A DNA stretch of 4,782 nucleotides, taken from positions 1 through 4,782 of IMG/VR virus record IMGVR_UViG_2648501235_000004; one strand, written 5' to 3'. Below, piece by piece: positions 1 through 4,737 of this stretch (within the stretch, counting starts at the first letter, position 1; the number at the start of each line of letters is the position of its first letter). The stretch is from a virus (taxonomy: Duplodnaviria > Heunggongvirae > Uroviricota > Caudoviricetes). The position numbers were made by a program.

Positions 1-3000
1 AGGGCGTGAGCTTCCTGCTCCGTCTGACCGTGACAGCGGATGACGGCAGTGAGCGGCTGGTCAGCACGGCCCGGACGACGGAAACCACATACCGCTTCAC
101 GCAACTGGCGCTGGGGAACTACAGGCTGACGGTCCGGGCGGTAAATGCGTGGGGACAGCAGGGCGATCCGGCATCGGTATCGTTCCGGATTGCCGCCCCG
201 GCAGCGCCGTCGCGGATTGAGCTGACGCCGGGCTATTTTCAGATAACCGCCACGCCGCATCTTGCGGTTTATGATCCGACGGTACAGTTTGAGTTCTGGT
301 TCTCGGAAACGCGGATTACCGATATCAGGCAGGTTGAAACCACAGCCCGCTATCTTGGCACGGGGCTGTACTGGATAGCCGCCAGTATCAATATCAAACC
401 GGGCCATGATTATTACTTTTATATCCGCAGTGTGAACACCGTTGGCAAATCGGCATTCGTGGAGGCTGTTGGCCAGCCGAGTGATGATGCATCCGGCTAT
501 CTGGATTTTTTCAAAGGAGAGATAGGGAAAACCCATCTGGCTCAGGAGCTGTGGACGCAGATTGATAACGGTCAGCTTGCGCCTGACCTGGCTGAAATCA
601 GGACGTCCATTACGGATGTCAGCAATGAAATCACGCAGACCGTCAATAAGAAACTGGAAGACCAGAGTGCGGCAATTCAGCAGATACAGAAGGTTCAGGT
701 TGATACCAGTAATAACCTGAACAGTATGTGGGCTGTGAAGCTGCAACAGATGAAGGATGGACGCCTTTATATTGCGGGTATTGGTGCCGGTATTGAGAAT
801 ACCCCGGACGGCATGCAGAGTCAGGTGCTTCTGGCTGCAGACCGGGTGGCATTTATTAACCCGGCGAATGGTAACACCACTCCTGCACTGGTCACACAGG
901 GCGGACAGACGTTTATTAATGAGGCGCTGATCAAGTTCCTTATTGCTCCCACGATTACCAGTGGTGGCAATCCTCCGGCATTCTCCCTGACACCTGACGG
1001 AAAGCTGACTGCTAAAAATGCGGATATCAGTGGCAGTGTGAATGCGAACGCCGGGACGCTCAACAACGTCACGATTAATGAGAGCTGTACTATTAAGGGG
1101 ATGCTTGATGCTAACCAGGTGCGTGGTGATTTTGTAAAAACGACAGGGCATCGATTTCCGCACCCCGGAGAATACCCACAGGGTTCACTTACCGTTCATA
1201 TTAAGGACGATCATGCCTTTGACAGGCAGATTATAATTCAACCAATCATGTACGGTGCACCACCATATTTTAGTAAAAATGATGGCGCTAATATCTACGA
1301 TACCTGCAGATTAATTGTGCGCAAAAATGGCAATGTAATCTATGACAAATCCACTAGTGGTTCGAAAAGGACAACAGTCGTGTACAGCAATATCATTGAT
1401 ATGCCAGTGGGGGACGGAGATGTAATATTAACATTTGAAGTTCAGTCGAGCGGCAGTGGAGAGCCCAGAACATGGATCAGTGATTTAATGGTCTCGGTAA
1501 CGAAAAAAGCCGCATCCGGTATCAGTATCAGTTGAAATTTTTATAACCCCAATACGGGCGCCAGAAATGGCGCCTTTTTTATTGCAGAAAAGCGAGAGGT
1601 AATTATGCGTAAAGTTTGTGCAGCCATTTTGTCCGCAGCCATCTGTCTGGCCGTATCCGGTGCGCCTGCATGGGCGTCTGAACATCAGTCCACACTGAGC
1701 GCAGGGTATCTTCATGCCCGTACGAACGCACCCGGCAGCGATAATCTGAACGGGATTAACGTGAAATACCGTTATGAATTTACGGACACGCTGGGGCTGA
1801 TTACGTCTTTCAGTTATGCCGACGCAGAAAATGAACAAAAAACGCATTACAGCGATACCCGCTGGCATGAAGATTCCGTGCGTAACCGCTGGTTCAGCGT
1901 GATGGCGGGGCCGTCTGTGCGCGTGAATGAATGGTTCAGCGCGTATGCGATGGCGGGGGTGGCTTACAGCCGTGTGTCGACATTCTCCGGAGATTATCTG
2001 CAGGTGACCGACAACAAGGGGAAAACGCACGATGTGCTGACCGGCAGTGATGACGGTCGCCACAGCAACACGTCTCTGGCGTGGGGGGCTGGCGTGCAGT
2101 TTAACCCGACCGAATCCGTGGCCATTGATATTGCTTATGAAGGCTCCGGCAGTGGTGACTGGCGCACTGACGGTTTCATCGTGGGTGTCGGTTATAAGTT
2201 CTGATTAGCCAGGTAACACAGTGTTATGACAGCCCGCCGGTTCAGGCGGGCTTTTTTGTGGGGTGAATATGGCAGTAAAGATTTCAGGTGTACTGAAAGA
2301 CGGCACAGGGAAACCGGTACAGAACTGCACCATTCAGCTGAAGGCAAAACGTAACAGTACCACGGTCGTGGTGAACACGGTGGCCTCAGAAAATCCGGAT
2401 GAAGCCGGGCGTTACAGCATGGACGTCGAGTATGGTCAGTACAGCGTTATTCTGATGGTGGAAGGATTCCCGCCGTCACATGCCGGGACCATCACCGTGT
2501 ATGAAGATTCCCAACCGGGTACGCTGAATGATTTTCTCGGTGCCATGACGGAGGATGATGCCCGTCCGGAGGCACTGCGCCGTTTTGAACTGATGGTGGA
2601 AGAGGTGGCGCGTAACGCGTCCGCAGTGGCACAGAACACGGCAGCCGCGAAGAAGTCAGCCAGCGATGCCAGCACATCTGCCAGTGAGGCGGCAACCCAT
2701 GCGACTGATGCCGCAGGCTCAGCACGCGCAGCCAGCACGTCCGCCGGACAGGCCGCGTCGTCGGCTCAGTCAGCGTCTTCCAGCGCAGGAACGGCATCAA
2801 CAAAGGCCACTGAAGCGGAAAAAAGTGCTGCCGCTGCAGAGTCCTCAAAAAGCGCGGCGGCCACCAGTGCCGGTGCCGCGAAAACGTCAGAAACGAATGC
2901 GGCAGCGTCACAACAATCAGCCGCCACTTCTGCATCCACCGCGACCACGAAAGCGTCAGAAGCAGCCACTTCAGCCCGGGATGCGTCGGCTTCAAAAGAG

Positions 3001-4737
3001 GCGGCAAAATCATCAGAAACGAACGCCTCCACAAGCGCCAGCAGTGCAGCCTCCTCGGCAACGGCGGCAGGAAATTCCGCGAAGGCGGCAAAAACGTCCG
3101 AGACGAATGCTAAGTCTTCTGAAACGGCAGCGGAACAGAGCGCCTCAGCTGCGGCAGGCTCAAAAACAGCGGCTGCATCATCTGCCAGTGCCGCGTCAAC
3201 AAGTGCCGGGCAGGCCTCAGTCAGTGCCACCGCCGCCGGAAAATCGGCAGAAAGTGCTGCATCGTCTGCTTCAACAGCCACAACGAAGGCTGGCGAAGCC
3301 GCTGTACAGGCCAGCGCAGCAGCGAGGTCTGCTTCCGCAGCGAAGACATCCGAAACGAACGCGAAAGCGTCGGAAACCAGCGCAGAATCCTCAAAAACGG
3401 CTGCCGCATCATCCGCCAGTTCGGCGGCGTCATCGGCATCATCTGCGTCTGATTCAAAAGATGAGGCGACCAGACAGGCGTCAGCGGCGGCAGAGAGTGC
3501 GTCAACGGCATCCACGAAGGCGACAGAGACGGCAGGAAGTGCGACGGAGGCAGCTCAGAGCAAAAATGCGGCTGAATCCGCGGCAACGCGCGCCGAGACA
3601 GCGGCAAAACGGGCAGAGGATATTGCATCCGCCGTGGCGCTTGAGGATGCGAGCACGACGAAAAAGGGGGTAGTACAGCTCAGCAGTGCGACCAACAGTA
3701 CGTCTGAAACGCTGGCGGCAACGCCAAAGGCAGTAAAAGCAGCCTATGACCTTGCTAACGGGAAATATACCGCTCAGGACGCTACGACAGCACAAAAAGG
3801 GATTGTCCAGCTAAGCAGCGCGACTAACAGCACATCTGAAACGCTTGCCGCGACACCGAAAGCAGTGAAAGCAGCTAATGACAATGCGAATGGTCGGGTA
3901 CCTTCTGCCCGTAAGGTGAATGGTAAGGCGCTTTCAGCGGATATTACACTGACGCCGAAAGATATTGGTACGCTTAACTCAACAACTATGTCATTCAGCG
4001 GTGGTGCTGGTTGGTTCAAATTAGCAACGGTAACCATGCCGCAGGCGAGTTCTGTTGTTTCAATTACGTTGATTGGTGGCGCGGGATTTAACGTGGGGTC
4101 ACCTCAACAGGCAGGTATATCTGAACTTGTTTTGCGTGCAGGTAATGATAATCCGAAGGGGATTACTGGTGCTTTATGGCAGCGCACATCGGCAGGGTTT
4201 ACAAATTTTGCCTGGGTCAATACATCTGGTGATACTTACGATATTTACGTTGCAATCGGAAATTATGCGACTGGTGTAAATATTCAATGGGATTATACCA
4301 GTAATGCCAGCGTAACGATTCATACGTCACCAGCATATTCTGCTAATAAGCCGGAAGGGTTAACGGACGGTACAGTTTATTCACTCTATACGCCATCAGA
4401 GCAGTTTTATCCGCCTGGCGCACCAATCCCGTGGCCATCAGATACCGTTCCGTCTGGTTATGCCCTGATGCAGGGGCAGACTTTTGACAAATCTGCTTAC
4501 CCGAAACTTGCAGCCGCTTATCCGTCAGGCGTGATCCCTGATATGCGTGGCTGGACGATTAAGGGCAAACCTGCCAATGGTCGGGCCGTATTGTCTCAGG
4601 AACAGGACGGCATTAAATCGCACACCCACAGCGCCAGCGCATCCAGTACGGATTTGGGGACGAAAACCACATCGTCGTTTGATTACAGTAGTGGCACAGT
4701 AAGTTTGGCCACCTGATTAAAGGTGATATTCTCACCT

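Follow-up and report, generated by a model that had tools for sequence, protein, structure and literature searches.

Organization of the Locus

The 4,782-nucleotide (nt) stretch analysed here (the window), positions 1 to 4,782 of the IMG/VR record IMGVR_UViG_2648501235_000004, comes from a lambdoid prophage, where it forms the right-hand end of the tail module, with the gene order J–lom–stf. Our subject is a long array of AxxSAxx heptads encoded within its side tail fibre gene, stf. The + strand first carries the 3′ part of the central tail fibre gene J (6–1535; Pfam Ig_J, Ig_J_second, Phage_Tail_Tip and Ig_GpJ_C), then lom, which codes for an Ail/Lom outer-membrane protein (1605–2204; PF06316, E = 1.3e-126), and finally the open reading frame (ORF) of stf (2269–4716; PF08400, PF03406 and PF07484), whose product has 815 amino acids (aa). 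While ORF calling placed the start of stf at GTG 2263 (MNMAVK...), the database proteins and the Stf of phage lambda begin at ATG 2269 (MAVKISG...). Since a public-database protein of 815 aa that starts at this ATG (P0123) is 100% identical to the Stf of the window, we take 2269 to be the true start.

The N-terminal tail-attachment domain of Stf, with its linker, occupies aa 1–113 (2269–2607, + strand). It is recognized by PF08400 (E = 1.6e-72), whose full-length match covers aa 3–136, and it is modelled with β-strands by AlphaFold2 (AF2). Residues 3–96 further match chain Ta of PDB 9e7m, a 94-aa "Tail fiber protein" (E = 6e-53) that we take to be the N-domain of the Ur-lambda Stf. The heptad array follows at 2608–3639 (+ strand), as delimited by a register model and supported by AF2 helix prediction and homology to Ur-lambda. 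Beyond it lie two Phage_fiber_2 repeats (3652–3903, + strand, the end of the second being approximate; PF03406 in two stretches, E = 1.1e-37), which begin at aa 464. The last part retained is a Collar domain with the beginning of a receptor-binding tip like that of T4 gp37 (4366–4686, + strand), in which PF07484 spans aa 719–766 and aa 702–812 match the T4 gp37 tip (PDB 2xgf, E = 8e-48). The gene has the features of a lambda-type stf, namely the PF08400 N-domain, a position downstream of J and lom, and a tfa gene downstream in L113, a genome with an identical Stf protein. Of the C-terminal modules, two PF03406 repeats, PF07484 and the 2xgf match are present, but the tip is cut at about nt 4686 and its remaining 143 aa are encoded about 1.25 kb downstream in L113. 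The array, placed between the PF08400 domain and the Phage_fiber_2 repeats, very probably forms the proximal coiled-coil rod of such a fibre. A rod of this kind has already been described for phage lambda; the gene is known, its allele in the window is a common one, and the array is an ordinary feature of it.

The homology of this stf to other alleles stops at nt 4686, and the last 96 nt of the window (4687–4782, + strand) are the left end of an IS3-family insertion sequence (IS), with the ATG of its orfA at 4760. The stf stop codon at 4716 and the last codons before it are therefore IS-derived, leaving an Stf devoid of its receptor-binding tip. In L113, the same point is followed by an IS3-family element with an HTH_Tnp_1 orfA and an rve orfB (L113 8419–9670; about 1.25 kb, as estimated from the ORF coordinates), then by the 143-aa His-rich remnant of the tip, tfa (Caudo_TAP), cif and nleG. 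The IS interrupts stf within the gp37-like tip, and the stf of the window would be inactivated. The L113 prophage is an effector-carrying lambdoid prophage, with the type III effector genes cif (PF16374) and nleG (PF06416) lying just downstream of tfa (L113 11159–13513).

A Heptad Array Held in a Single Register

We delimited array blocks and register shifts with a register-tracking Viterbi model. In the window, it returned a single block of 344 aa (aa 114–457 when numbered from the ATG; nt 2608–3639) comprising 49 heptads with zero register shifts, an almost exact match to the array of about 48 heptads at 2617–3640 that had been noticed in a preliminary description of this DNA. The 48 cleanest heptads (aa 122–457 when numbered from the GTG; nt 2626–3633), written in rows of seven, show Ala at position 1 in 46 rows, Ser at position 4 in 37 and Ala at position 5 in 34. 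At the Ala frequency of 37.5%, the binomial chance of finding at least 46 of 48 Ala in one phase is ~1e-17, which bears out the claim that Ala recurs at every seventh codon over about 1 kb; the corresponding chance for Ser at position 4 is ~2e-14. The autocorrelation and Fourier analyses that the preliminary description had proposed as a check agree with this pattern: the autocorrelation of Ala at lag 7 is 0.48 (z = 8.9 against residue shuffles), and the strongest Fourier peaks lie at 3.50, 7.00 and 2.33 residues, i.e., at harmonics of a 7/2 heptad repeat. The composition of the 344 residues is extreme, with 37.5% Ala, 24% Ser and 12% Thr, 10 Gly, four Val and one Ile, and with no Pro, Leu, Met, Phe, Trp, Tyr or Cys.

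Superimposed on this pattern is a recurrent KTSETN/KSSETN unit, with copies starting at nt 2881, 3007, 3091 and 3343. The heptads that contain them are, on the + strand, AKTSETN at 2878–2898 (unit 1), AKSSETN at 3004–3024 (unit 2), AKTSETN at 3088–3108 (unit 3) and AKTSETN at 3340–3360 (unit 4). Their spacings of 126, 84 and 252 nt are 6, 4 and 12 times 21 nt, exact multiples as had been claimed, and the variants KSSETA and KASETS each lie 21 nt after one of the K(T/S)SETN units.

We then compared this regularity with that of the wider family. A search of 50%-identity cluster representatives retrieved 1,092 proteins at E ≤ 0.001, the best 149 of which carry 359 array blocks; over the 50,344 aa that these blocks comprise, the register shifts only 76 times. 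Of the 435 uninterrupted stretches in these 149 proteins, 14 have 336 aa or more, the longest reaching 482 aa or 69 heptads. Thus, the regularity that had been called exceptional is so among coiled coils generally but normal for this array family; strict phase being a property of the family, it argues for structural selection. The array is also widespread: a match to the query region was found in 4,745 of 5,426 complete E. coli genomes, with at least 80% of the query covered in 3,585 of the 5,426. The K-12 stfR and nearly all the sampled E. coli matches have an ungapped array of the same length. The StfR of the K-12 Rac prophage shares the architecture as well, aligning without gaps over 1251 nt at ~94% identity. 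The same architecture recurs in the E. coli "prophage tail fiber N-terminal domain-containing proteins", which differ in their C-terminal receptor-binding modules and range from 652 to 1252 aa in total length.

Predicted Structure of the Rod and Its Relatives

Our assessment of the array as a coiled coil is based on its Fourier spectrum and on the secondary structure of an AF2 model. The Fourier maximum at 3.50 rather than 3.6 residues fits a coiled coil. In the AF2 monomer, DSSP assigns predicted helix to residues 98–240, 252–390 and 397–462, interrupted by two short breaks, with a predicted local distance difference test score (pLDDT) of ~60–80. The closest characterized relative is the side fibre of Ur-lambda, the product gpStf, which cryo-electron microscopy (cryo-EM), cryo-electron tomography (cryo-ET) and AlphaFold3 together describe as a trimeric bundle with a proximal coiled-coil domain at residues 102–393 (PMC12617516). 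According to the same study, three collar domains are joined to the trimeric bundle that follows by linkers of ~10 residues, and four trimeric fibres are arranged on the tail tip as a dodecameric collar. Cryo-ET there showed a rod-like proximal domain with a limited range of rotation, and cryo-EM a trimeric bundle at its start. The lambda Stf had also been listed among the long prokaryotic coiled-coil proteins in 2005 (PMC1322226).

The Stf of lambda and Ur-lambda and that of the window have in common the J–lom–stf position, the N-domain, the AxxSAxx heptads, the Phage_fiber_2 repeats and the gp37-like tip; the gene of the window differs in being cut by an IS. The array of the window is homologous to that of lambda over its first 28 and last 8–9 heptads, and lambda has a divergent segment of 6 heptads where the window has 21. 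The window array is 15 heptads longer than that of lambda (361 against 256 aa between the anchor motifs), making for a rod that is by calculation ~15.6 nm longer. By analogy with Ur-lambda, the array may be taken to form a parallel trimer, and this homology together with the predicted helix supports the earlier proposal of a trimeric coiled-coil shaft. At 0.1485 nm per residue, the rod would be ~51 nm long.

The seam positions of this putative coiled coil are occupied by Ala and Ser, in line with the small core residues proposed in the preliminary description. Such a pattern would resemble an Ala zipper rather than the canonical apolar residues at the a and d positions. Small-residue coiled-coil cores are a known variant: as cited in PMC12284834, the Lpp-56 trimer narrows in radius from 6.1 to 5.2 Å when Ala is substituted into its core. 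Such Ala-rich coiled coils, including the Lpp-56 Ala variant and honeybee silk, combine small core residues with tight, small-radius packing (PMC12284834). Neither is related to Stf, and neither has core Ser or 49 uninterrupted heptads; honeybee silk further differs from Stf in being an antiparallel heterotetramer.

A more distant likeness was found in the tail fibre protein gp17 of phage T7, whose residues 172–260 give a weak match to the array (E = 0.034) and contain the heptads AGNSASA AHQSEVN AENSATA SANSAHL. As in Stf, an N-terminal tail adaptor is followed by a trimeric helical rod with AxxSAxx heptads. In contrast to Stf, the rod is much shorter, the N-domain is unrelated, and position 4 is Phe, Trp or Tyr in the first half. 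The proximal region of gp17 has been described as a dynamic triple coiled coil that is experimentally unresolved (bioRxiv 10.1101/2025.10.22.683886). The aromatic residues at position 4 further upstream in the T7 segment favour a register in which position 1 is a and position 4 is d, and we infer that in Stf these would be Ala and Ser, respectively.

Several observations weigh against a three-stranded rod. The AF2 monomer, which supports no more than the helicity, folds the helix back on itself at modest confidence (mean pLDDT 56); this is the usual artefact for a modelled chain that normally pairs with its own copies, and the authors of the Ur-lambda study report that their AlphaFold3 model of full-length gpStf likewise folds back (PMC12617516). 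The seam is not classically hydrophobic, having Ser at position 4 and, over the 344 aa, neither Leu, Met nor aromatic residues. In the absence of large hydrophobic residues, the stability and the oligomeric state of the rod rest on homology. The matching chains of PDB 9e7m span Stf residues 3–96 only and do not reach the array, and when the array by itself was searched against PDB sequences, no solved AxxSAxx rod emerged, only the marginal match to T7 gp17, in a region that itself has no experimental structure. Finally, since the IS cuts the gene in this prophage, a working fibre that includes the rod is probably not made here.

Array Lengths and Junctions among Alleles

As a measure of array length, we used the distance from the FELMVEE motif to the first GxxQLS motif, with lengths taken from the matches to a longer query, from genomic loci and from the 50%-identity representatives. 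A homologue search with the N-domain alone had been set aside, as it returned just stf fragments of 113–218 aa, mostly labelled partial and useless for this purpose. Among close relatives, ~110 of ~125 unique arrays belong to the 361-aa class found in the window. Rarer in-phase classes measure 333 aa (P0233), 256 aa (lambda and others), 249 aa (L073 and others), 144 aa (L121) and 137 aa (P0269 and P0349). All six classes equal 4 modulo 7, the rarer ones differing from the 361-aa class by 4, 15, 16, 31 and 32 heptads. By our calculation, five out of five multiples of 7 would arise from in-frame indels of random size with p ~6e-5, assuming that the events are independent.

The expectation that allele lengths differ in steps of seven codons thus stood for these six classes, but a minority of alleles deviate from it. 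The out-of-phase variants are −3 aa (L061 and P0175), +3 aa (P0134), +4 aa (L020), −1 aa (the 5′-truncated L120) and −253 aa, i.e., 36 heptads plus 1 (P0283, P0288 and P0290). Length differences of this kind had been named beforehand as evidence that would speak against the heptad interpretation, and formally these few alleles provide them. Insertions of 3 and 4 residues are the classical stammer and stutter tolerated by coiled coils (PMC4786415), and the register shifts in the distant set are likewise mostly of 1-, 3- and 4-residue types. An apparent +128 nt variant from the E. coli survey (H70) proved to be an alignment artefact of a duplicated fibre repeat, and its array is of the standard 361-aa class.

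One deletion junction was seen in DNA. The 336-nt (16-heptad) deletion of L073 coincides exactly with an 11-nt direct repeat, GAAACGAACGC, present in the window at 3016 and 3352, where it encodes part of SETN in units 2 and 4; the left end of the deletion thus falls in unit 2 and the right end in unit 4. The deletion of P0233 lies between units 2 and 3, with its junctions in K(T/S)SETN units, and two alleles with unrelated C-terminal modules (L039 and L057) are homologous to the window until right after unit 3 (3088–3108). RecA does not recombine efficiently on a homology as short as ~11 nt, which is instead compatible with slippage or with recombination at short homologies. The data are consistent with a mechanism in which length changes come about through such microhomologies and selection for phase then follows.

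In another side fibre the shaft position appears to hold a rod of a different kind. On a contig from a metagenome-assembled genome labelled "Clostridiales" (L101), an Stf N-domain 94% identical over residues 1–110 is followed by an array-like stretch and then by a long collagen-like G-X-Y run (GPPGPKGEQGPAGPQGPKGDKGERGD...). On the strength of its sequence, we read this run as a putative different trimeric rod in the position of the shaft.

The DNA of the Array and Alternative Explanations

At the nucleotide level, self-identity within the array peaks at lags of 21, 42, 63, 84, 105 and 126 nt, where it is 0.41–0.46 as against 0.36 at other in-frame lags. The 21-nt periodicity is strong when compared with codon shuffles (z = 6.0) but only z = 1.4 when compared with permutations of synonymous codons; it is therefore merely a shadow of the periodicity of the protein. 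Tandem Repeats Finder reported no array over the heptad region except for a 39-nt fragment. A repeat search found degenerate families of 15–50 nt, the best repeats being 28 nt with 75–82% identity. No exact direct repeat in the array exceeds 12 nt, a length that codon-shuffled controls attain as well (mean maximum 12.2). Nine exact repeats have 10 nt or more, and five of them lie in 21-nt phase. The DNA of the array is thus not repetitive beyond the requirement of the protein. A recent DNA duplication had been entertained as the origin of the array, and was dropped when neither Tandem Repeats Finder nor the repeat search showed a DNA-level array.

These results bear on two explanations that place the primary feature in the DNA. 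One holds that the array is a 21-nt repeat locus for recombination, i.e., a contingency locus at which fibre length changes at high frequency. Such a locus would account for length classes that differ by multiples of 21 nt, for a deletion that ends on in-phase microhomologies and for the in-phase majority among the short exact repeats. The failure of the periodicity to exceed that of synonymous permutations, the lack of a tandem array and the short or degenerate repeats argue against it, as does the prevalence of the 361-aa class, ungapped in nearly all the sampled E. coli genomes, which implies that length change is rare and not phase-variable. We therefore regard a contingency locus as improbable; the earlier suggestion that the 21-nt period makes the region a substrate for unequal recombination is right as to length changes in heptad steps, joined at the K(T/S)SETN units, but not as to the substrate, which with exact repeats of at most 12 nt would be a poor one for homologous recombination. 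The other explanation is that a long overlapping ORF is a real gene and that the periodicity reflects dual coding. The array indeed contains a 335-aa ORF in another, stop-free frame of the + strand (2666–3673) and an antisense ORF of 249 aa (2766–3515, − strand), and such ORFs have been annotated in databases. For instance, orf206b of reference lambda (L117 2004–2624, NP_040603.1) is annotated antisense within the orf-401 array, and a RefSeq "hypothetical protein" (WP_021570482.1; L120 963–1697) lies antisense to a 5′-truncated stf in an E. coli genome. However, codon shuffles, in which the period is destroyed, yield similarly long open frames. The stop-free run of 335 codons in frame +1 compares with a shuffle mean of 255 and is reached or exceeded by 15% of the shuffles, and that of 262 codons in frame −1 compares with a mean of 230 and is reached by 34%. 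The cause of these frames is thus the GCN/TCN/ACN codon composition that comes with Ala, Ser and Thr, and not the periodicity, to which they had first been attributed. Their translations are low-complexity strings rich in Arg, Pro and Gln or in Ala, Asp and Phe, and dual coding appears scarcely credible to us. Both orf206b and WP_021570482.1 belong with the ORFs of the window that codon composition keeps open.

A further explanation accepts that the protein is the seat of the feature but takes the array for a flexible, largely disordered low-complexity linker of Ala, Ser and Thr, whose periodicity is a relic of duplication. Its composition, with almost no large hydrophobic residues, would suit such a linker, as would the merely moderate confidence of the AF2 model. 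The proximal region of T7 gp17, which has similar heptads, has moreover been reported to unwind dynamically (bioRxiv 10.1101/2025.10.22.683886). Against this, a single register is kept over 344 aa in the window, and across the wider family the register shifts number just 76 in 50,344 aa even though identity drops to 40–50%, pointing to selection on heptad phase rather than to a relic. The array also contains no Pro and is predicted by AF2 to be continuous helix, and in Ur-lambda the equivalent region was seen by cryo-ET as a rod-like proximal domain and by cryo-EM as a trimeric bundle (PMC12617516). We thus consider a disordered linker to be unlikely.

A Proposed Three-Stranded Rod with Interchangeable Heptads

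Taken together, the array very probably encodes the proximal three-stranded, parallel α-helical coiled-coil rod of the lambda-type side tail fibre, with ~49 uninterrupted heptads. Our data show directly that the array is periodic, where it lies among the Stf domains, that helix is predicted for it, that allele lengths fall into in-phase classes and that one junction can be seen in DNA. The picture that we propose is that three Stf chains would wind into a parallel coiled coil of ~49 heptads and ~51 nm, with a seam composed solely of small residues, namely Ala at positions 1 and 5 and Ser at position 4. At one end of the rod would be the N-domain, docked at the tail tip, and at the other the Phage_fiber_2 repeats with the gp37-like receptor-binding tip, which the rod would hold out beyond the central fibre. 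As its heptads would be nearly equivalent, it would tolerate their loss, gain or exchange in whole units, so that alleles would differ by multiples of seven codons and receptor-binding modules would be joined in register. The joints would tend toward short in-phase microhomologies, such as those within the K(T/S)SETN units.

The rod sets the reach of the side fibre, and both natural and engineered Stf chimeras have been joined in this segment. Two of our results offer practical rules for designing fibres of a given length or with new specificity, namely the unbroken register and the preservation of heptad phase both in natural length variants and at the junctions of modules. A more speculative idea, which we consider possible but rather doubtful, is that the Ala/Ser-only seam is itself a designed property rather than a merely tolerated one, giving a thin, marginally stable and torsionally compliant rod with interchangeable heptads that serves as an evolvable ruler and a universal in-register adaptor. 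If so, length would be set in heptad quanta of 1 nm across the observed range of ~16–49 heptads, and receptor-binding modules could be swapped at in-phase microhomologies (the K(T/S)SETN units) with the phase of the coiled coil left undisturbed.

Distant Arrays and Annotation Artefacts

AxxSAxx-type arrays are also found in giant proteins of 3,000–6,200 aa (P0270, P0271, P0279, P0298 and P0320). In P0270, P0271 and P0279, 6–13 arrays of ~40–240 aa each are separated by non-array modules of ~150–300 aa, and the same module appears to have been reused in giant proteins of 2,000–6,000 aa with 6–13 such arrays. A Pfam scan of P0270 gave no match. Among five distant array proteins scanned against Pfam, a single match was above threshold (Peptidase_S74 in P0280), with CBM_4_9 in P0346 falling below it at 21.0 bits against a cut-off of 25.9.

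Copies of stf with 93% identity to the query N-domain occur in assemblies of unrelated taxa, including Leeuwenhoekiella, Shewanella, Pseudomonas, Oceanobacillus, Neobacillus, Desulfosporosinus, Kitasatospora, Bradyrhizobium and others (L083–L098, L100, L104 and L109). Three of them (L083–L085) share one 256-aa array, the class assigned to lambda, and several lie on contigs of ~48.4–48.5 kb with coverage near 1. These copies look like contamination with phage lambda DNA.

Lastly, the survey flags recurrent annotation artefacts in the array, namely antisense "hypothetical proteins" and the lambda orf206b, pieces of stf from contig ends, and stf fragments that carry the name of a transporter. Many database Stf entries are labelled partial (among P0021, P0031, P0126, P0143, P0157 and P0164) and are presumably such contig-end fragments. 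The misnomer "short-chain fatty acid transporter" is attached to several, and one (P0099) is called "Ail/Lom family", in what looks like a propagated annotation error.

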